Assembly (NCBI GenBank): GCA_964612685.1
Contig: CAZTCF010000001.1
Span: forward strand, 19,399-83,398
Direction of reading: 5' to 3'
Length of the DNA: 64,000 nucleotides
Origin: Candidatus Woesearchaeota archaeon
Lineage (GTDB): Archaea > Nanobdellota > Nanobdellia > Pacearchaeales > GW2011-AR1
Shown here: positions 206-60,915 of the stretch, in pieces
Numbering within the stretch: position 1 is the first letter of the stretch
How the letters are laid out: each line of letters opens with the position of its first letter
Program-made: the position numbers and the translations under genes
The notes under the pieces: model-generated
What the model was told of the DNA's origin: nothing
The model's input: the letters and a program-made list of their open reading frames with translations, nothing else
The model's database searches: none

Positions 206-340
206 GGTCCCATAGTTTAATGGTAGAACATGTCCTTGACGATGTAAGGCACCAAGGTTCCTTGACAATCAACCTCCTTTAAGGAAAGTGAGATAAACAT
301 CAAAATGGACAGGGTTGCAGTCCGATTCTGCATGGGACCA
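206..340 (+). tRNA. tRNA-Val(GAC) with 64-nt canonical intron (242-305)
   Basis: Acceptor GGTCCCA/TGGGACC plus A; D arm GTTT-AATGGTA-GAAC; anticodon stem TGTCC/GGACA; T arm TGCAG-TCCGATT-CTGCA. The intron follows position 37. A bulge-helix-bulge is readable: TTGA (236-239) pairs with TCAA (300-303), flanked by 3-nt bulges CGA and AAT. Confidence 0.8.
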
Positions 341-1763: not shown

Positions 1764-1819
1764 GCCTGTATAGCTCAGTGATAAGCTCAGATTAACATCT
1801 GGCTAAATCACTTTAGGCA
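1764..1819 (+). other. tRNA-like leader element: copy of the first 20 nt of tRNA-Thr plus a TAAC-loop hairpin and acceptor-like 3' strand
   Basis: 1764-1783 is identical to 1826-1845. Possible pairings are GTGAT/ATCAC, AGC/GCT and CAGAT-TAAC-ATCTG. TTTAGGC+A pairs 6/7 with GCCTGTA. Confidence 0.6.
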
Positions 1820-1825
1820 TAATAA

Positions 1826-1897
<72 letters not shown>

Positions 1898-10093: not shown

Positions 10094-10094
10094 A

Positions 10095-10231
10095 CGCCGT
10101 AACCAGGAATCGAACCTGGAAATCCTTTCGGATCACGATATTTGGGTTTACCCTGGATAGGAAAGCTTACAAAAGAAACTGGGGGTGTCTTTTGTTTCCA
10201 ATCGTGTGGAGTACCATTGTCCCATTACGGC
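10095..10231 (-). tRNA. tRNA-Ser(GGA), type II, with 56-nt canonical intron (10195-10140)
   Basis: Minus strand: acceptor GCCGTAA/TTACGGC plus G; 3-bp D stem; anticodon stem CACGA/TCGTG with loop TTGGAA|intron|A; variable arm ATCC-GAAA-GGAT; T arm CCAGG-TTCGATT-CCTGG. The BHB helix TTGG/CCAA is flanked by bulges AAA and ATA. Confidence 0.75.
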
Positions 10232-10316
10232 ATGCAAAAGATTAGAAATTCTTTATTTTAAAATCTATTTCCAATTTACTAAATGGTTATAAACCAATTC
10301 TTTTTTTAGTAAGTTC

Positions 10317-13414: not shown

Positions 13415-13939
13415 TTAGGTTCTTATCCAGCTTACTTCATAATAGGAAACATCTGATTCTTCATCAATTATTGCTAAAAGGAGATTCTTTTTTGTAGAGT
13501 GTGCAACCCTGTTTTTTGAAGCAAACTCGTGCCAGGAGAATTTTTTGGATTCATGTTCACAAAATACAATCCACTTTGCATGTTCTTCATCTGGGGTTGT
13601 TCCTTTTTCATAAACTCTGAAATCTGCTCCAAATTTTAAAGCAGTTTTTACAACATATCCTTTATCTCTTAAATCTTTGAATACCGGATATTTTAATTGT
13701 ATTTTTGAATCAATCTTTTTGAAAGTCTTTAATAACTCTTCAAATGGGATGCTCTTTTTTCCTTTTATAATCTCTATTTTCCCCTTTTCAACAAGGTATA
13801 ATGCTTCAGCTAGAGCGTATTGAATTTTTTGGTTTATAGGTTGTCCAAAATTTGATTTTTTATACAATGTAAAAGCATCAGCTTCATTTGTTGAAACAAT
13901 TTCTCCCAGCAGGTATGTTTTTATTTTGTTCATCCACAT
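13415..13939 (-). CDS. endA: tRNA-splicing endonuclease EndA
   Basis: LAEALYLVEKGKIEI...FKDLRDKGYVVKTALKFGADFRVYEKG...HAKWIV matches the catalytic domain pattern. At 174 aa it is the size of a single-unit enzyme. Confidence 0.85.
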   Translation of the reverse strand: MWMNKIKTYLLGEIVSTNEADAFTLYKKSNFGQPINQKIQYALAEALYLVEKGKIEIIKGKKSIPFEELLKTFKKIDSKIQLKYPVFKDLRDKGYVVKTALKFGADFRVYEKGTTPDEEHAKWIVFCEHESKKFSWHEFASKNRVAHSTKKNLLLAIIDEESDVSYYEVSWIRT

Positions 13940-34143: not shown

Positions 34144-35283
34144 TTATTCTTTATACTTCTTTTCAACTTCTTTTTGAAAATCTTTGAATTTACCTTGCTT
34201 TATTTTTTGTTTTGCAGTTTCTATTAATTTTGTTAAGAAGTATATGTTGTGGTAAGTTGTAAGTTTTTTCCCTGTTAATTCATCGTTAATGATAAGATAC
34301 CTTATGAATGCTCTACTATAATTTTTACAAACAAAACAATTGCAATTTTTGTCAATGGGAGAAGTATCGAATTTGCAATCTTCTTTTAAAATTCTTAATT
34401 TTCCTTCCGAGGTAAATAAAGAGCCCCTTCTTGCATTTTGAGTTGGCATTCTGGAATCAAAAATATCAACACCTAATTCTATTCCTTTTAATATTTCAAT
34501 TGGATTTCCAATTCCCATTAGATAAACTGGTTTGTTCTCTGGGAGAAGTTGTTTTAATTGCTTTACAATATTGAATTCTTCTTGAATTGTTTCTCCTAAA
34601 CCAAATCCTCCAATTGAATATCCATCAAAATCTATCTCTAGTAATGACTTTGTTGAGGTTTCTCTTAAGTCTTCGTATTTTCCTCCCTGGATTATACCAA
34701 ACAAAAGTTGACGTTTGGATTTTGGAATATTTTTTTGTAAGGTTTCGTGATGAAGTTTACATCTTTTTGCCCATGCAGTTGTTTTTTTAACTGAGTCTTC
34801 TATTTGTAATTTAGAATGAGTATACATAGGCATAGAATCCAAACACATTGCAACCTCGCTTCCTATATCTAATTGTACTTTCATATTTTTTTCAGGAGTC
34901 ATGAATATTTTTTCTCCATTTAAAGGATTTTTGAATTGCACCCCTTCTTCATTTGATTTTATGTAAATTGTTGGAGTGTACATCTGAAAACCTCCAGAAT
35001 CTGTGAAATTAATTCCATTGTAATTCATGAATTTACCAATTCCACCTAACTTGTTTGTGATTACTGAACCTTCTCTTAGATAGAGTATCAAAGCATTGGA
35101 GATAACTGCTGGAACTTTCATTTGTTTAAGTTCTTCTGAAGTTAAAGTTTTAACACTTCCACGTGTTGCAACTGGCATAAAAAATGGAGTTTCTACCTTT
35201 CCTTTCTTTGTTTGAAGTAAGCCAATTCTTGCATTTGTTGATTTGTCTTTGTGAGTTATTGTGAAAGTTTCCTTAATTGCCAT
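34144..35283 (-). CDS. tgt: tRNA-guanine transglycosylase, single catalytic domain (bacterial/eukaryal-like motif pattern)
   Basis: VETPFFMPVATRGSVK, TDSGGFQ and the zinc site CNCFVCKNYSRAFIRYL. The internal ATG at 35283 is chosen because the 14-aa hydrophobic extension looks spurious. Confidence 0.85.
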   Translation of the reverse strand: MAIKETFTITHKDKSTNARIGLLQTKKGKVETPFFMPVATRGSVKTLTSEELKQMKVPAVISNALILYLREGSVITNKLGGIGKFMNYNGINFTDSGGFQMYTPTIYIKSNEEGVQFKNPLNGEKIFMTPEKNMKVQLDIGSEVAMCLDSMPMYTHSKLQIEDSVKKTTAWAKRCKLHHETLQKNIPKSKRQLLFGIIQGGKYEDLRETSTKSLLEIDFDGYSIGGFGLGETIQEEFNIVKQLKQLLPENKPVYLMGIGNPIEILKGIELGVDIFDSRMPTQNARRGSLFTSEGKLRILKEDCKFDTSPIDKNCNCFVCKNYSRAFIRYLIINDELTGKKLTTYHNIYFLTKLIETAKQKIKQGKFKDFQKEVEKKYKE

Positions 35284-35363
35284 TAAAATGAGTAAAATGA
35301 GGGATATATAAAGATTAGCAAGCATAGATAAAATTTATTAAACCTCTTTTTCTATAAAACACC

Positions 35364-39440: not shown

Positions 39441-40013
39441 ATGCCACGTGATAGATTTCTTCAAAGAAAAACAGCAGTTCTTTCAAAATTAGATAAATCT
39501 TCAATTGGAGGATGGGATAATAGAATTAAACCTTTATGTGATAAAATAAATGGTTTAGATGATTTTTATACTACTAGTAGTTGTTCTGGAAGGATAATTT
39601 TAATGATACAACAGAATAAAAAAGGAAAAGATTTATTTTTAAAGACTTGGCATGAGAAAGTTTTTTTTGATGAGTTAAACGAGACATTAAATATACTTTT
39701 AAACAAAAAGGAGATTATCAAATTTAAGGTTGAACCTCCTATAATCCATATTGCCTGTAGGGATTTGAAAAAGGCAACCTATCTTCTTGAAAAAGCAAAA
39801 TATGTTGGATTTAAAAGAAGTAGCATATTAACTTGTGATAAGAACATTATTCTTGAATTAAATAGTAGCGATAGGATGGAATTCCCAATAATAAAGAACA
39901 ATAAAGTTTTGGTTAACGAGGAATTTTTGAAACTGGCTCTTGAAATGTCTAATTATAAGTTAGAAAGAGGGTGGGAGAAGATTAAACTGTTGGACAAAAA
40001 ATTGGTGGCTTAA
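39441..40013 (+). CDS. taw3: tRNA wyosine-derivative methyltransferase Taw3/TYW3 family
   Basis: FYTTSSCSGRIIL signature and ~190 aa size. Confidence 0.75.
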   Translation: MPRDRFLQRKTAVLSKLDKSSIGGWDNRIKPLCDKINGLDDFYTTSSCSGRIILMIQQNKKGKDLFLKTWHEKVFFDELNETLNILLNKKEIIKFKVEPPIIHIACRDLKKATYLLEKAKYVGFKRSSILTCDKNIILELNSSDRMEFPIIKNNKVLVNEEFLKLALEMSNYKLERGWEKIKLLDKKLVA

Positions 40014-42479: not shown

Positions 42480-43637
42480 ATGGATTATTTGCAGGAGGAG
42501 CAGATAGCTCAAGCAGCTTCAGGGTCAAAAGGTAGTAGGATTTTTTTCTTTATATTTCTGGGCGTTATCTTGATCATTCTAGCTATTATAGTTTATCTCG
42601 CCTTTATTGCAAGTCACAAAAATATTTCAGATAAAAAACTGATGGAAGGGGTTGCTATGGAAGTAGGAGAAAGTGATTCTGTTAAGTTTAATCTTGATGA
42701 GGAAGAACACGGTATGAGAATAAACTTTGTTGGTTATGATTCTGTCCAGTTAACAATTTCAAGCGATCCTATTAATTTAAGTTTAAAGATTAATGAGGTT
42801 AAGGAAGTGGATTTGACAAATGATGGAACATATGACATAAGGATAAAACTAGTTAGCATTATTGAGGGTAAGGCGACAATTGCGGTTAAGAGAATTGATA
42901 AAGATAATTGTCAGGAAGATTGGGCGTGTTCTAATTGGGGAAGTTGTAATAAAGGTATTCAAACAAGGGTTTGTAAGGATTCAAACTCTTGTGGAACAAT
43001 ATTCTATAAGCCTTCAGAAAAAAAAGATTGTTTAGAGATGGAGTTTGTTTATGAGGATAATTCTCAAGAAAAGGTTGTGAATAAAAGTGTAAATAATACT
43101 TCAATAAACGAGACAATAAATATCTCATTAATGACAGATTCGGATAATTCAACTATTCCTATAGAGAATACTACAAATATCTCATTAACAACAGGTTCAG
43201 ATAATTTGACAATTTCTGTAGAGGAGAATACAAATGTGAATCTTACAGAGGATTTAGATAATACAACGGATACTTCTTCGATTATATATGGCCTTTCTGA
43301 AAATACGACTACTTTAACAGATAATGAGGTAACTAATATAATCCCTTATCCGGTTTGTTCTAATGGAGGTTATCCTTGTTATGAGCCACAAGGTTTGTTT
43401 TGTGCAGATTATTACAGTTATTATATGTTTAATCCTTTTTGTTGTCCAGAAGAATGCTTAAAATTTGAATCTGTGGAACAATTCTGCCTTGCAAGAGGGT
43501 ATTTCTCCTTTTTTGAGAATGAAACTCATGTTTGTAAAGTAAGAACGTATTCTCCATTTAATGGAACTAATATAATATGCTGCGCTTCTATTGAGATTAA
43601 AAGAGATATATACTCTGGTATTTCTACTCAAATGTGA
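42480..43637 (+). CDS. membrane-anchored extracellular protein with Cys/Trp module and many N-x-S/T sequons
   Basis: N-terminal TM helix (IFFFIFLGVILIILAIIVYLAFI), CQEDWACSNWGSCNKGIQTRVCKDSNSCG, and a Cys-rich C-terminus. Confidence 0.55.
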   Translation: MDYLQEEQIAQAASGSKGSRIFFFIFLGVILIILAIIVYLAFIASHKNISDKKLMEGVAMEVGESDSVKFNLDEEEHGMRINFVGYDSVQLTISSDPINLSLKINEVKEVDLTNDGTYDIRIKLVSIIEGKATIAVKRIDKDNCQEDWACSNWGSCNKGIQTRVCKDSNSCGTIFYKPSEKKDCLEMEFVYEDNSQEKVVNKSVNNTSINETINISLMTDSDNSTIPIENTTNISLTTGSDNLTISVEENTNVNLTEDLDNTTDTSSIIYGLSENTTTLTDNEVTNIIPYPVCSNGGYPCYEPQGLFCADYYSYYMFNPFCCPEECLKFESVEQFCLARGYFSFFENETHVCKVRTYSPFNGTNIICCASIEIKRDIYSGISTQM

Positions 43638-44748
43638 TCTCTCCCCCGCCAATTACTTTTTCTTTTTGATACAAAACTATTGCTTGTCCTTCACTTATAC
43701 CCGTTATTTTTTCATTTAAGATTACATTAAATTGTTTTGATTTTTTATCGTAGAAAAGTGTGCTTGGAAGCAATTCTCCAACATGACGTATTCTAGACAA
43801 TACTTTAGTTTTTTTGCCTTTGAACTCATTTTTATTGTTGGAAATAAGATGTAAATCTTTGATTATTATTTTTTTTCTAAAGTTTAATTGGTGATCTTTT
43901 GGAGCAGCAACAAGGATATTTTTTTTGATGTCTTTCTCTGCAACATACCATTTGGAAGGTTTATTTTTATTTCCCCGGTCTAATTCAAATCCATATCTTG
44001 GACCTAAACGTTGTCCTATTGTGTAATAGTAAATTCCATCGTGTTCCCCAATTACTTTTCCATCTGGGTCTAATATTTTTCCTTTTTTGGGTTTTATCTT
44101 TTTTTGTAAAAATTTTTTAAGGTTAACTTTTCCTATGAAACATATGCCTACAGTACCTTTTTTATCGTAATTTGGAAGATGATTCTTTTTTGCTATATCT
44201 CTAATTTGTTGTTTAGTATATTCTCCTATGGGGAATAAACAATGAGAGAGTTCATTTTGTGTTACCTTATATAAAAAATAAGATTGATCTTTAGATTCAT
44301 CTTTTCCTCTAAGTAATTCGTATATGTTTTTTTTGTTTTTTTTAACTCTTGCATAATGTCCTGTTGCTATTAAATTAATTTTTCTTTTTTTTGCTTCTTC
44401 AAGAAGAAGGGGGAATTTTATTTTTTGATTACAGTCTATATCTGGGTTAGGGGTTATTCCTTTTTTGTATTTTTCAAACATCTTTTCAATAACTTCCTTT
44501 CGGTATTGTTTTTCAAAGTCAAGTGTAATTAAAGGAATATTCAATTGAGATGCAATTTTTAATGCCATCTTTCTTTCGGTTCTCCAGGCACATCTTCCTG
44601 TTAATGGGTCTTTTGTATCGCTCCAATTTTTCATAAACGCTCCTATTACTTCGTATCCCTGTTTCTTTAGAAGAAGAGCAGCTATACTTGAATCTACTCC
44701 CCCGGACATTGCAAGGAGAATTTTTTGCTTTTGATTTTTTGATATCAT
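43624..44748 (-). CDS. mnmA: tRNA-specific 2-thiouridylase MnmA
   Basis: ILLAMSGGVDSSIAALLL PP-loop, and ITPNPDIDCNQKIKF. Confidence 0.88.
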   Translation of the reverse strand: MISKNQKQKILLAMSGGVDSSIAALLLKKQGYEVIGAFMKNWSDTKDPLTGRCAWRTERKMALKIASQLNIPLITLDFEKQYRKEVIEKMFEKYKKGITPNPDIDCNQKIKFPLLLEEAKKRKINLIATGHYARVKKNKKNIYELLRGKDESKDQSYFLYKVTQNELSHCLFPIGEYTKQQIRDIAKKNHLPNYDKKGTVGICFIGKVNLKKFLQKKIKPKKGKILDPDGKVIGEHDGIYYYTIGQRLGPRYGFELDRGNKNKPSKWYVAEKDIKKNILVAAPKDHQLNFRKKIIIKDLHLISNNKNEFKGKKTKVLSRIRHVGELLPSTLFYDKKSKQFNVILNEKITGISEGQAIVLYQKEKVIGGGEITFE

Positions 44749-44838
44749 TAAGTAGTTTAGTTATTAAGTATTATAAGGTTTTTTAATAGGGGTAAACTTT
44801 AAATAAGGTTTTAATTTTCAATTCTTAAATAAGTATAT

Positions 44839-44898
44839 GCCCTGGTTGCTCAGTTGGTTAAAGTTCTAACGAACAAACCATCTTCACCACCTAAGGTA
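44839..44898 (+). other. tRNA-like leader element: copy of the first ~22 nt of tRNA-Asn plus a GTTC-TAAC-GAAC hairpin and acceptor-like 3' strand
   Basis: 44839-44860 matches 44909-44930 at 21/22. TGGTT (44855-44859) pairs with AACCA (44876-44880). CTAAGGT+A pairs 6/7 (including 2 G-U) with GCCCTGG. Confidence 0.6.
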
Positions 44899-44908
44899 AT
44901 AAATATGT

Positions 44909-44982
44909 GCCCTGGTAGCTCAGTTGGTTAGAGCGCACGACTGTTAATCGTGAAGTCGTAGGTTCGAGTCCTACCCGGGGCG
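44909..44982 (+). tRNA. tRNA-Asn(GTT)
   Basis: GCCCTGG TA GCTC AGTTGGTTA GAGC G CACGA CTGTTAA TCGTG AAGTC GTAGG TTCGAGT CCTAC CCGGGGC G. Confidence 0.9.
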
Positions 44983-45527: not shown

Positions 45528-47066
45528 TTAACTCTGGCATCCAGCTAAGGTTTCCCATAACTGATAGCTATCTCCTATTTCAATATCGGTTATTCCTGTT
45601 GAGACTTGTATAACTGTATATTGTCCTGGATTAATTGGGTAGTCCATTTTTAATACAGGATAACAACGAGAGTATATACTTGTTATTCTTACATAATGTG
45701 CATCATTTAGTATGGTTTGTTCTGATGTTTCTCCAAATTCAGGTAAGTTACTTCCTGTAAGGAAATTGTGTCCTATTGGTACTGGCCAGACAGAAGTTAC
45801 AGTTCCGGAATTTAAACTTGTTTCTGGAGCTACACAAATACCATTTATACAGGTTTCTGGTAGGGTACATTCCCCACAAGATTCTCCACACCCATTCGGA
45901 ACATCTCCACATTCAGTTCCGGTTTCAAGACAGTTATCATCACACATTACACATATCCCTGTTGTAAAGTTACATTCTTCTGGCAAGATGCAATTTCCAC
46001 AAGTTCCACCACATCCATCCTCTCCGCACTCTTTACCAATACAATCAGGAGTACATAGTTCACATATTCCACTTTCATTACAAAAATAATTTGAACCATA
46101 TTCATATTCGCAATCTCCTCCAAATGTTCCACAAGTTCCACCACATCCATCCTCTCCGCACTCTTTTCCTATGCAATTTTCTATAGGGTTACAATCCGCT
46201 TGACATATTCCTCCTACGTTGTGTTCTCCTACTAAACAACAAATTCCCCCATCACACCATCCGCTACTACATGTTCCACATTCATTTTCGTCTCCGCATC
46301 CATTTGGAGCTGCACCACACATTTGATCTCCACAATTTGGTTGAATTATTCCAGGACAGCTTCCTTCACATCCGTCTGAGCAGCTTGTTCCAGTACAAAT
46401 TGTTGATGAGCAAGCACAGTTTGCCACACAAGGTTCGGTTGTTGTTGTACAACTTCCTGAAACGCACTCTTCCGGACTTGTACAGCTTCCGCAACTTCCA
46501 AAGCATCCATCATCTCCACAATCTTTTCCTGCACAATTCGGAACACAACCCGGGTCTGGCTCTCCCTCTCCTTCTCCAGGGTCTCCTTCTCCTCCAGAAC
46601 CAGTGTAATAAACATAATATGTATCTTGAACATCTCCTGTTATTGTTTTTCCAGAACTGGTTGAGAATACCGGAGAGATAGACACACTAACTATATTTCC
46701 AGTATATGGGACGGGAAACGTTGTTACTTCAAATTCATCAAATGTCTCTCCTGGAGGTATATTATTTGTAAAGACATATGAATCTCTCCCATCAAATATA
46801 GATATAATTATATCATTTAATTCTCCCGCACCGGCATTTCTTCTTATTTTTATTCCTGTAGAATTTGGATCAGAATAAACATCTGAGGGATAAACTTTTA
46901 CTATTTCTAGACTAATAGTGAATTGTCCTAATGAAATTGATTCTGCATTGTTTTTTATAACTGTTCTTATAACCCCCCAAACTATTGCAATTGCAACTAT
47001 AACAAGAAGAATTATTAAAAGGGTTGCGACAACTGTTGAGAGACCTCTGGTATCACCTTTTTTCAT
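45528..47066 (-). CDS. surface protein with archaeal type IV pilin-like (class III) signal peptide and Cys-rich CGxDGCGGxCG repeats
   Basis: MKKGDTRG|LSTVVATLLIILLVIVAIAIV is pilin-like. The central region carries at least five repeats such as CIGKECGEDGCGGTCG. Confidence 0.7.
   Translation of the reverse strand: MKKGDTRGLSTVVATLLIILLVIVAIAIVWGVIRTVIKNNAESISLGQFTISLEIVKVYPSDVYSDPNSTGIKIRRNAGAGELNDIIISIFDGRDSYVFTNNIPPGETFDEFEVTTFPVPYTGNIVSVSISPVFSTSSGKTITGDVQDTYYVYYTGSGGEGDPGEGEGEPDPGCVPNCAGKDCGDDGCFGSCGSCTSPEECVSGSCTTTTEPCVANCACSSTICTGTSCSDGCEGSCPGIIQPNCGDQMCGAAPNGCGDENECGTCSSGWCDGGICCLVGEHNVGGICQADCNPIENCIGKECGEDGCGGTCGTFGGDCEYEYGSNYFCNESGICELCTPDCIGKECGEDGCGGTCGNCILPEECNFTTGICVMCDDNCLETGTECGDVPNGCGESCGECTLPETCINGICVAPETSLNSGTVTSVWPVPIGHNFLTGSNLPEFGETSEQTILNDAHYVRITSIYSRCYPVLKMDYPINPGQYTVIQVSTGITDIEIGDSYQLWETLAGCQS
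45995..46166. repeat. 40-nt perfect direct repeat (45995-46034 and 46127-46166), 132-nt period, inside the pilin-like gene
   Basis: TTCCACAAGTTCCACCACATCCATCCTCTCCGCACTCTTT occurs twice. On the minus strand it encodes the duplicated KECGEDGCGGTCG module. Confidence 0.9.
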
Positions 47067-60705: not shown

Positions 60706-60780
60706 TGAGGCTGCACAGATTTGAACTGTGGACCCCGGCCTTATCAGAGCCGTGCTCTAGCCAGACTGAGCTACAGCCTC
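60706..60780 (-). tRNA. tRNA-Ile(GAT)
   Basis: Minus strand: GAGGCTG TA GCTC AGTCTGGCTA GAGC A CGGCT CTGATAA GGCCG GGGTC CACAG TTCAAAT CTGTG CAGCCTC A. Confidence 0.9.
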
Positions 60781-60791
60781 ATTGTTGTTTT

Positions 60792-60853
60792 TGAGACATT
60801 CTTCTCAGGATGGCTTGTTCGTTAGAACTCTAGCCAGACTGAGCTACAGCCTC
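60792..60853 (-). other. tRNA-like leader element: exact copy of the first 26 nt of tRNA-Ile (plus 7 nt of upstream flank) followed by a GTTC-TAAC-GAAC hairpin
   Basis: Plus-strand 60828-60860 is identical to 60755-60787 (33 nt). On the minus strand TGGCT pairs with AGCCA, CTCAG pairs with CTGAG, and ATGTCTC+A pairs 5/7 with GAGGCTG. Confidence 0.6.
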
Positions 60854-60915
60854 ATTGTTGGAATTAATTGAACAATTCAACAGAAAAAAGCATATTAGAA
60901 TCTTTATAAAAGTTA

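Follow-up and report, generated by a model that had tools for sequence, protein, structure and literature searches.

A hairpin-forming copy of the tRNA 5′ end precedes tRNA-Ile and other tRNA genes in Pacearchaeota/Woesearchaeota-type archaea

Why is the tRNA-Ile(GAT) gene of a Candidatus Woesearchaeota archaeon preceded by an exact copy of its own 5′ end, and what might such a copy do there? The gene lies in a stretch of 64,000 nucleotides (nt) of contig CAZTCF010000001.1, referred to here as the window. The copy belongs to a module made up of the duplicated tRNA segment, a small apical stem-loop and an arm complementary to the duplicated segment, and modules of this type recur at other tRNA genes in the window and in related archaea. 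The anatomy of the modules, their tRNA-specific location, their polymorphism in tandem number and in presence or absence, and the compensatory maintenance of their stems are matters of observation. As to their role, we tentatively favour the view that the module is a co-transcribed, cis-acting 5′ leader of the pre-tRNA, in which the duplicated segment would be locked in a hairpin and removed by RNase P, with recombination expanding or deleting modules.

The tRNA-Ile locus occupies window positions 60706-60910 on the minus strand. Its parts, in the direction of the gene, are as follows.

60903-60910, minus strand: TATA-like box TTTATAAA, right after the stop codon of the upstream open reading frame (ORF), at -57 to -50 from the copy; probable promoter.
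60884-60889, minus strand: run of six Ts, lying 3′ of the TATA-like box but before the predicted start of transcription of the tRNA.
60828-60860, minus strand: decoy copy, comprising 7 nt of flank (CAACAAT) and tRNA-Ile positions 1-26; identical to 60755-60787.
60793-60853, minus strand: leader hairpin with stems GAGGC/GUCUC, CUCAG/CUGAG, UGGCU/AGCCA and GUUC/GAAC, from folding and covariation.
60817-60828, minus strand: apical stem-loop GTTC-TAAC-GAAC, with an exact match in the tRNA-Asn leader at 44863-44874.
60804-60816, minus strand: 3′ arm A-AGCCA-TC-CTGAG, able to pair with the D-loop and the 5′ strand of the D-stem in the copy.
60793-60797, minus strand: basal 3′ arm GTCTC, pairing with the acceptor 5′ strand GAGGC of the copy through one G-U pair among others.
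60781-60792, minus strand: linker AAAAACAACAAT, A/C-rich and predicted to be unpaired, joining the hairpin to tRNA position +1.
60706-60780, minus strand: intact tRNA-Ile(GAT), with no encoded CCA and a T-rich trailer; Rfam RF00005, 65.2 bits.

Read along the minus strand, the box TTTATAAA (60910-60903) and the T6 run are followed after some 25 nt by CAACAAT-GAGGCTGTAGCTCAGTCTGGCTAGAG (60860-60828), then by TTCTAACGAAC-A-AGCCA-TC-CTGAG-AAGAAT-GTCTC (to 60793), the linker and the gene. The direct repeat is exact over 33 nt with a spacing of 73, its second member (60755-60787) running from -7 to +26 of the tRNA. A preliminary description of this locus, made by reading the sequence, had reported this self-copy, and the repeat search bears it out. 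The pairings it proposed, TGGCT (60836-60832) with AGCCA (60815-60811), CTCAG (60843-60839) with CTGAG (60808-60804), the apex GTTC-TAAC-GAAC (60828-60817) and basal GAGGC with GTCTC (60797-60793), are all present and are returned by RNAfold. Its remark that the spacer reads like a degenerate complement of the 5′ part of the tRNA holds for the 3′ arm. The copy and the 35 nt after it form the predicted leader hairpin, whose free energy (dG) ranges from -25.3 to -24.6 kcal/mol and whose z-score ranges from -4.5 to -4.9; no shuffle out of 200 reaches the stability of the -25.3 kcal/mol fold. The stems are separated by a 2x2 UC/UC and a 3x1 AGA/A internal loop and closed by the UAAC tetraloop. The basal 3′ arm looks like the 3′ acceptor strand of a tRNA in degenerate form, with the discriminator A after it, and equivalent tRNA-specific arms occur elsewhere: AGCUUC and AGUCUU at the related tRNA-Ile loci L019 and L020, and GGGC in the tRNA-Lys modules. 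The T6 run is likely to be the terminator of the upstream ORF, by analogy with known archaeal oligo-T termination. A small palindrome, TTGAATTGTTCAATTAA (60862-60878, minus strand), lies in the predicted extra leader just 5′ of the decoy copy and is found at this locus only.

The repeat is no assembly artefact, because the 288-nt intergenic region of the Ile locus is 100% identical in four further independent assemblies (JGI, ENA samples), giving five identical assemblies in all, and because orthologous loci carry related modules. Chance is likewise rejected, on the length of the repeat (some 3e-11 exact 33-mer pairs are expected in 64 kb) and on its recurrence at three tRNAs. The two sister modules in the window are these.

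44828-44908, plus strand: module of tRNA-Asn(GTT), gene at 44909-44982; made up of an 11-nt flank, tRNA positions 1-25 copied with 4 mismatches, an AACCA arm and the apex seen at Ile.
1764-1825, plus strand: module of tRNA-Thr(TGT), gene at 1826-1897; same architecture, with stems CAGUGAU/AUCACU and UCAGAU-UAAC-AUCUGG.

The Thr self-copy is exact over 20 nt with a spacing of 62, and its module folds at -24.7 kcal/mol (z -4.7). The Asn self-copy extends over 36 nt at 89% identity with a spacing of 70; the outer stems of its module are partly decayed (dG -14.6 kcal/mol, z -1.3). The apex common to the Ile and Asn leaders, already pointed out in the preliminary description, is the 12-mer GTTCTAACGAAC, which occurs exactly twice in the window, at 60817-60828 and 44863-44874, and in the same relative place in both leaders. 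A self-copy screen found no equivalent at tRNA-Val, tRNA-Ser or tRNA-Arg of the window.

Every module follows the same order of parts. Its 5′ half consists of 0-45 nt of the gene's own upstream flank, the copy of tRNA positions 1-25, and a stem of 4-6 base pairs (bp) with a small loop; its 3′ half consists of an arm against the D-loop (ARCCA) and the D-stem 5′ strand (CUGAG-like), followed by an A/C-rich linker. A short arm complementary to the acceptor 5′ strand usually sits between the anti-D arm and the linker. Modules are 57-103 nt long and vary in copy number. The right boundary of the copy is fixed at +25/26 and the left boundary ranges from 0 to -45. Linkers are 53% A (16 modules), and no sense-strand run of five or more Ts occurs in 1153 nt of module sequence. 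A fold survey of 14 distinct modules returned one common four-stem hairpin for all of them (z between -1.7 and -5.2). Decay of a whole tRNA copy does not account for the module: its middle 28-40 nt are unlike tRNA positions 27-65 and are common to different tRNA species. Nor is the apex a mimic of the T-arm or the anticodon arm, whose stems do not fit.

The tRNAs that carry modules have G15, the archaeosine site, whereas the Val and Arg tRNAs have A15. The module-carrying tRNA-Thr(TGT) genes (window 1826-1897; L030 10797-10870; L033 10776-10847) have a D-loop of AGUGAUA or AGCGAUA and a T-loop of UUUGAAU, which imply an A19:U56 elbow pair and not the usual G19:C56; module-free tRNA-Thr genes (L028 11118-11190; L035 10466-10537) have GG and UUCAAAU.

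Is the hairpin itself maintained? An alignment of 12 cores shows both inner stems 100% paired, with pairing preserved through double changes: one pair is U-A in nine cores and C-G in three, another U-A in eleven and G-C in one. The Ile orthologues differ likewise: their inner stem is UGGCU/AGCCA in the window and L019 and UGGUU/AACCA in L020, and the apex GUUC/GAAC is replaced by GUGC/GCAC in L020. Asn modules from two lineages show the same kind of compensated difference. Modules of the Thr type, 98% paired, have other stem sequences in the same design; there, a U-to-C change in the D-loop of the gene recurs in the copy, and the 3′ arm compensates for it (AUCACU to AUCGCU, U-A becoming C-G). 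Another pair is G-U in some sequences and A-U in others. Identity between related modules is 89-100% over the copy, apex and anti-D arm, compared with 67-71% for the rest of the module and 52-62% for the neighbouring intergenic flanks. From these alignments, the hairpin is real and its stems are maintained by compensatory changes in independent lineages, with the caveats that ten of the 12 cores were found by a fixed motif, that only three pairs are double-changed and that related sequences inflate the shuffle statistics. The UAAC loop, by contrast, which the preliminary description had taken as conserved, is not invariant: it is UAAU in L033, UAC in L030, and UUGAA or a triloop in L019, and the apical helix ranges from 4 to 6 bp (5 or 6 in L019 and the Thr type). 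The loop has the look of a structural cap and not of a site recognised by its sequence.

These observations bear on a neutral origin, in which modules would have no selected structure and would simply result from replication slippage or unequal crossing-over where tRNA genes are heavily transcribed. Such an origin would suit the variation in module number and presence between relatives, the breaking of contigs and scaffolds at the arrays, and the decay of the Asn modules. Slippage, however, cannot create a complementary arm; nor does it predict double compensatory changes, fully paired inner stems, conservation far above that of the flanks or the avoidance of sense-strand T runs. A neutral origin is disfavoured, and we regard it as very unlikely.

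How widely is the module distributed, and is it confined to tRNA genes? Public collections were scanned for the exact motif GTTCTAACGAACAANCCATC. In a collection of species-representative genomes there were six loci, comprising four Woesearchaeota metagenome-assembled genomes, in each of which the match lies directly 5′ of a tRNA-Lys, and two chance matches in bacterial sequence. In a metagenome collection six loci were found, all of the same kind, at tRNA-Asn, tRNA-Lys, an intron-bearing tRNA-Ile(TAT) and contig ends. Thus ten of the 12 matches lie beside tRNA genes of Woesearchaeota/Pacearchaeota-type archaea, and there were none in 2.9 million viral contigs. A covariance model of the core (R1), applied to 261 kb, scored all of these modules at 59-70 bits, only at tRNA 5′ flanks, with nothing else above 22 bits; the best match away from a target reached 12 bits. 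On both counts the module is not a dispersed element. The preliminary description had argued for a tRNA-specific leader over a generic mobile mini-element and had proposed that occurrence of the block at many non-tRNA sites would speak against this; in the 261 kb the covariance model found the block at tRNA 5′ flanks only.

Tandem arrays are part of the distribution, with one to at least three modules at a locus. L001 has two identical 74-nt units, L010 two diverged units, L011 two 72-nt units and L002 at least two 57-nt units followed by a scaffold gap of 100 Ns. Gaps of exactly 100 Ns lie inside module arrays in L002 (about 1469-1568) and L020 (10906-11005), and the metagenome contigs L007, L009 and L012 end inside modules. 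Since short-read assemblies are broken by the arrays, they do not fix the true copy numbers.

The module corresponds to no Rfam family. Rfam matched only the tRNA: for RF00005 cmscan reported just the real genes, with nothing over 60781-60860 even at E values up to 10, and the module has neither anticodon arm nor T-arm. A C/D or H/ACA guide and a known ribozyme are rejected: Rfam gave no such match, inspection revealed no tandem G-A K-turn, and ACA triplets lie at inconsistent distances (2-16 nt) from the hairpin. The sense T run of an intrinsic or oligo-T terminator or attenuator is not found in the modules, whose linkers are A/C-rich. A search of the full-text literature turned up no description of such modules. 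The known kinds that come nearest are partial tRNA-gene duplications and structured pre-tRNA leaders, and we rate the module as a variant of these; there is a modest but genuine chance that it represents a new functional RNA class.

Comparison of orthologous loci shows how modules come and go. Orthologous Ile neighbourhoods were fetched through homologues of the ORF upstream of tRNA-Ile, and are listed here by the identity of that protein to its counterpart in the window.

L019: 75% identity; one Ile module.
L020: 71% identity; at least three Ile modules, an inverted cassette and a tRNA intron.
L023: 71% identity; no Ile module.
L021: 67% identity; no Ile module.
L025: 64% identity; no Ile module; tRNA-Ile identical to that of the window.
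L027: 62% identity; no Ile module.

L019 and L023 form a clean pair of filled and empty alleles differing by 74 nt. Their promoter stretches, ...CTTATAAATAGTCTCTTTTTTTGAATTTAA.AT, are nearly identical, and abut the first copy in L019 and the gene itself in L023. The Thr module is present in the window, L030-32 and L033 and absent from L028, L029 and L035, and the Thr promoter AAATCTTTTAAAGC lies at the same distance from whichever GCCTG comes first. One genome has the Thr module (L033) and lacks the Ile module (L027); another has the Ile module (L019) and lacks the Thr module (L029). Such mixed states within single genomes indicate that modules are gained or lost locus by locus. Apices at the Ile locus vary in sequence, being GTGC-TAAC-GCAC in L020 and GTTCT-TGA-AGAAC in L019.

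The Ile neighbourhood varies in other respects too. The cassette of promoter and tRNA-Ile lies inverted between the same two flanking genes in L020 (10682-11099) and L025 (10700-10856), the opposite orientation being found in the window, L019, L021, L023 and L027; two promoter types, TAACTTTTATAAA and AAACTTATAAATAG, occur at the locus. The orthologous tRNA-Ile(GAT) has an intron of 44 nt in L020 (10683-10803) and of 16 nt in L023 (10748-10840) and none in the window, L019, L021, L025 or L027. ARAGORN miscalls the intron-bearing genes of L020 and L023 as Ala and Ser.

Filled and empty sites invite the suggestion that the modules are scars or mini-cassettes at the DNA level, left when a recombinase-mobilised element with a tRNA 5′ core integrated site-specifically within the 5′ portion of the tRNA gene; the palindrome would be the recombinase site or a folded single-strand site resembling an integron attC. 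As in an att duplication, a direct repeat of a tRNA segment surrounds non-tRNA DNA, with clean empty sites in relatives (L023 against L019, L035 against the window). The order of core, element end and core, the fixed right boundary beside a variable left one, the occurrence of the same block of about 20 nt before different tRNA species, the tandem arrays and a hairpin stability that does not depend on strand all agree with such an origin, and there is precedent for a 5′ tRNA fragment derived from an integrated element bearing a recombinase (PMC3293823; PMC9897764). The insert, however, is only 34-42 nt, and the body of an integrase or recombinase is absent from between the repeats, which in the window leave room for just 40 nt. 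No Pfam integrase or transposase was found among 30 ORFs of the window (6.8-42.4 kb; the ORFs at 43-50 kb and those without Pfam matches lay outside this check) or in the Pfam lists of the gene tables of related loci, the viral contigs held no match, no plasmid-like counterpart turned up, and there was no copy outside tRNA leaders in the 261 kb. Moreover, both copies carry the acceptor sequence of the host tRNA itself, and covariation between the arms together with conserved internal mismatches would not be expected of a dead scar. Integration scars are, in our judgement, an unlikely explanation.

If the module is not simply a scar, is it transcribed, and from where? In the module-free loci L021, L023 and L035 a TATA box lies at about -26 to -36 of the tRNA; in L019, L033 and the Thr locus of the window it lies at the same distance from the first copy. 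The promoter thus abuts the first copy at most loci. The Ile locus of the window differs. The preliminary description placed the nearest strong TATA-like box at -57 to -50 from the copy and considered the promoter argument weaker here, and it was right on both points; with the box some 57 nt upstream, about 25 nt of extra leader would precede the copy. The TAACTTTTATAAA motif also precedes tRNA-Ile in L027, L025 and L020, and tRNA-Ile has a predicted leader of some 25-30 nt in the window and in L025, whether or not a module is present. The idea that each module has its own internal promoter is rejected. No TATA box occurs between -40 and -20 of the real tRNA-Ile, and since the apex can be anywhere from 20 to 67 nt away from +1, it is neither a fixed promoter element nor a ruler. 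As regards the strand, modules are co-oriented with the tRNA and contain 23 G-U pairs in the sense against 11 in the antisense direction; fold energy proved uninformative for choosing between strands. Co-orientation, the single upstream promoter, the absence of sense T runs, the A-rich linkers and the excess of G-U pairs together favour an RNA of the sense strand, as a suggestion from sequence and not as proof.

A transcribed first copy might itself be used. On this intron-like alternative the first copy would become the mature 5′ end, and everything from there to the same position in the gene would be removed by the splicing endonuclease and a ligase. The promoter lies at the leaderless distance from the first copy at most loci, in the minimum-energy fold the 3′ acceptor strand has the first copy as its partner, and the window encodes EndA (13415-13939). 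The alpha4-type EndAs of DPANN archaea have an L3 loop linked to relaxed specificity (PMC5829648). That loop could be taken to permit such processing, and because alpha4 enzymes may be relaxed in this way, the subunit type of EndA is unusable as an argument. Against the alternative, inspection of the predicted folds revealed no bulge-helix-bulge (two 3-nt bulges around a 4-bp helix) joining equivalent positions of copy and gene. The sole motif of bulge, 4-bp helix and loop is the apex, which would excise about 8 nt and give no tRNA, and which is not conserved, since L019 and the Thr type have a helix of 5 or 6 bp. The first copy frequently has a change in the D-stem (TAAAG for TAGAG), the copy is not at the transcription start at the Ile locus of the window, and the real gene is always intact. 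The alternative is scarcely credible.

We return to the favoured reading, a co-transcribed and insulated 5′ leader. The only putative TATA promoter lies ahead of the first copy, with none between module and tRNA, and transcription would start there. As the leader emerges, the duplicated acceptor 5′ strand and D-arm would be captured by the dedicated complementary arm in a stable hairpin of some 60 nt, which would keep the decoy 5′ strand from pairing with the later-made 3′ acceptor strand of the real tRNA. The unpaired A/C-rich linker would then present the authentic +1 to RNase P and the whole leader would be removed. In favour of insulation, shuffling the 3′ arm of the leader in silico raised decoy capture of the acceptor strand from 0.71 to 0.985, a nearly complete win (0.985 against 0.013). 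At the DNA level, direct repeats of 20-70 bp allow precise deletion, tandem duplication and the concerted evolution of copy and gene, which accounts for their identity; in L033, for example, both read GCCTGCA. Subunits of the RNase P ribonucleoprotein are encoded by all surveyed archaeal genomes, and HARP, the minimal protein-only RNase P, is found in no DPANN archaea in published surveys (PMC6380272).

Several points weigh against this reading. In the equilibrium fold of the full precursor the decoy takes the 3′ acceptor strand in 71% of the ensemble, so that on this model insulation would have to be kinetic; because the leader hairpin can fold before the 3′ end of the tRNA exists, sequestration may indeed work kinetically. 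The modules of L002 have no basal anti-acceptor arm and are amplified nevertheless. L025 has an identical tRNA-Ile and no module, which is thus dispensable. Sense and antisense hairpins are equally stable (p = 0.44), which leaves room for a palindrome acting at the level of DNA. The reading also leaves unexplained how the same block of about 20 nt, GTTCTAACGAACAARCCATC, comes to precede Lys, Asn and Ile genes, and why only tRNAs reading ANN codons carry modules. Modules were found only on ANN-reading tRNAs (Ile, Lys, Asn, Thr), in seven of 14 lineage-by-tRNA cases against none of 12 others (Fisher p = 0.006), cases that were found through gene neighbourhood, come from non-independent lineages and are confounded with a GCUCAG-type D-arm shared by the module-carrying tRNAs.

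The ANN bias is one reason to consider a module with a positive function of its own, either a conformational switch tuning maturation, or a titrating decoy, for ANN-reading tRNAs in high demand, or a trans-acting small RNA released by RNase P. In the small-RNA version the hairpin would carry a built-in 5′ tRNA fragment of 22-26 nt, and in Haloferax a 26-nt 5′ fragment of tRNA-Val reportedly regulates translation. Compensatory changes maintain the stems, and two nearly isoenergetic acceptor pairings are available. Modules have also been kept across lineages whose neighbouring proteins share only 71-75% identity, although the repeats should make precise loss easy. Yet modules are absent from close relatives with the same tRNA (L025, L023, L035), vary in copy number and length, have no conserved apical loop and are partly decayed at Asn; the ANN statistic has the limits just given, and no partner or target is known. 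The switch version, raised in the preliminary description, has as its sole basis the identity of copy and gene, which is trivial. An own function of this kind is rather unlikely, and we are equally guarded about the fuller proposal that the modules form a heritable, recombination-amplifiable RNA family specific to ANN-reading tRNAs in Pacearchaeota/Woesearchaeota-type archaea, in which a mimic of a tRNA 5′ fragment is built into a hairpin and acts as a conformational gate on the maturation of the tRNAs in highest demand or as an RNase P-released, trans-acting small RNA or decoy.

It is already known that the tRNA genes of small symbiotic archaea may have introns, be split or be permuted. The modules add another layer, a structured leader made from the tRNA's own 5′ end. 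If insulation is the correct reading, they would reveal how a duplication expected to be harmful to tRNA folding comes to be tolerated by a cell and later conserved, and would offer a natural system for kinetic competition in tRNA folding and for substrate choice by RNase P. If they have a function of their own, a new RNA device would be linked to the need of AT-rich genomes to decode Lys, Asn, Ile and Thr, and a gate or trans-acting small RNA or decoy would constitute a class of tRNA-linked regulatory RNA without described counterpart. In practical terms, module arrays break assemblies and can mislead tRNA annotation.

The window as a whole has about 31% G+C and contains archaeal housekeeping genes for L15e, S3Ae, an ATP-dependent DNA ligase, MCM, TBP, several aminoacyl-tRNA synthetases, EndA, TGT (tRNA-guanine transglycosylase) and TYW3. 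Sources label its close homologues as Pacearchaeota, Woesearchaeota, Nanoarchaeota or Nanobdellota, lineages of small archaea placed in the DPANN superphylum. Genes for tRNA processing are abundant in the window: EndA (174 amino acids, 13415-13939, minus strand), TGT (393 amino acids, 34144-35325, minus strand), which matches the catalytic-domain family only, and, at 39441-40013 (plus strand) and 43624-44748 (minus strand), TYW3 and an MnmA-like thiouridylase, the latter named from its sequence and unscanned. Seven genes serve aminoacyl-tRNA synthesis. The tRNA-Val(GAC) gene (206-340, plus strand) has a 64-nt anticodon-loop intron that repeats the exon motif CCTTGAC (GTCCTTGACgatg ... gttCCTTGACaatc); the orthologous tRNA-Val in L028, L030, L033 and L035 has none. 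The tRNA-Ser(GGA) gene (10094-10232, minus strand) is interrupted by a 56-nt intron and escaped both the initial tRNA scan and Rfam at the gathering score; only ARAGORN with intron search detected it. The same intron occurs in L028 and none in L030-32 or L035, and a different Ser gene stands there in L029. A cysteine-rich protein of 512 amino acids (45528-47066, minus strand) has an N-terminal hydrophobic segment and internal 51-nt repeats (45995-46045 and 46127-46177, 94% identity) that encode CGxDGCGGxCG-like motifs. The eRF1 and MCM genes of L021 (1-890 and 17249-20702) contain inteins (Pfam Intein_splicing, LAGLIDADG), from which their window orthologues are free.

Parallels can be drawn between the modules and a number of known systems. 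In Caldiarchaeum, a 5′ fragment of tRNA-Thr lies 1.8 kb upstream of the gene, left by an integrating element (PMC3293823), and in Thermococcaceae partial tRNA-gene duplications derive from integrating elements (PMC9897764). As in these archaeal duplications, a repeat of part of the tRNA flanks inserted DNA, the gene remains intact, and empty and filled alleles coexist. The insert here is 34-42 nt, however, and not kilobases, has no recombinase inside, is complementary to the repeated tRNA segment, forms a conserved hairpin and is tandemly amplified. Lying between the probable promoter and the gene, the module would also have to be transcribed.

The tyrT-distal 178-bp repeats of Escherichia coli (rtT RNA) are likewise tandem, tRNA-adjacent units, co-transcribed and processed with the tRNA, each with a short copy of a tRNA end. 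Those bacterial repeats copy the 3′ end, lie 3′ of the gene, lack a self-complementary arm and occupy a single locus, whereas the modules are 5′ and self-complementary and form a family across several tRNA species. Repetitive extragenic palindromes and bacterial interspersed mosaic elements (REP/BIME) and miniature inverted-repeat transposable elements (MITEs) resemble the module in having an imperfect palindrome of about 40 nt after GTAG (here tRNA positions 7-10), sometimes in tandem; they occupy hundreds of intergenic sites, while the module is found only at tRNA 5′ ends and has a 5′ arm that is the tRNA's own sequence. T-box and attenuator leaders are also structured, and in the module, too, an arm could pair with either of two identical partners. 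The module differs in being archaeal, in preceding a tRNA gene rather than an mRNA, and in having no terminator or anti-terminator, T run or Rfam match. Finally, the split tRNA genes of Nanoarchaeum equitans have complementary leaders and trailers which pair in trans and are spliced at a bulge-helix-bulge (PMC4033280). They come from the same broad archaeal group and share with the modules a tRNA-specific pairing of exon-flanking sequences; in the modules, by contrast, the tRNA gene is whole, no bulge-helix-bulge is formed and the pairing takes place within the leader.

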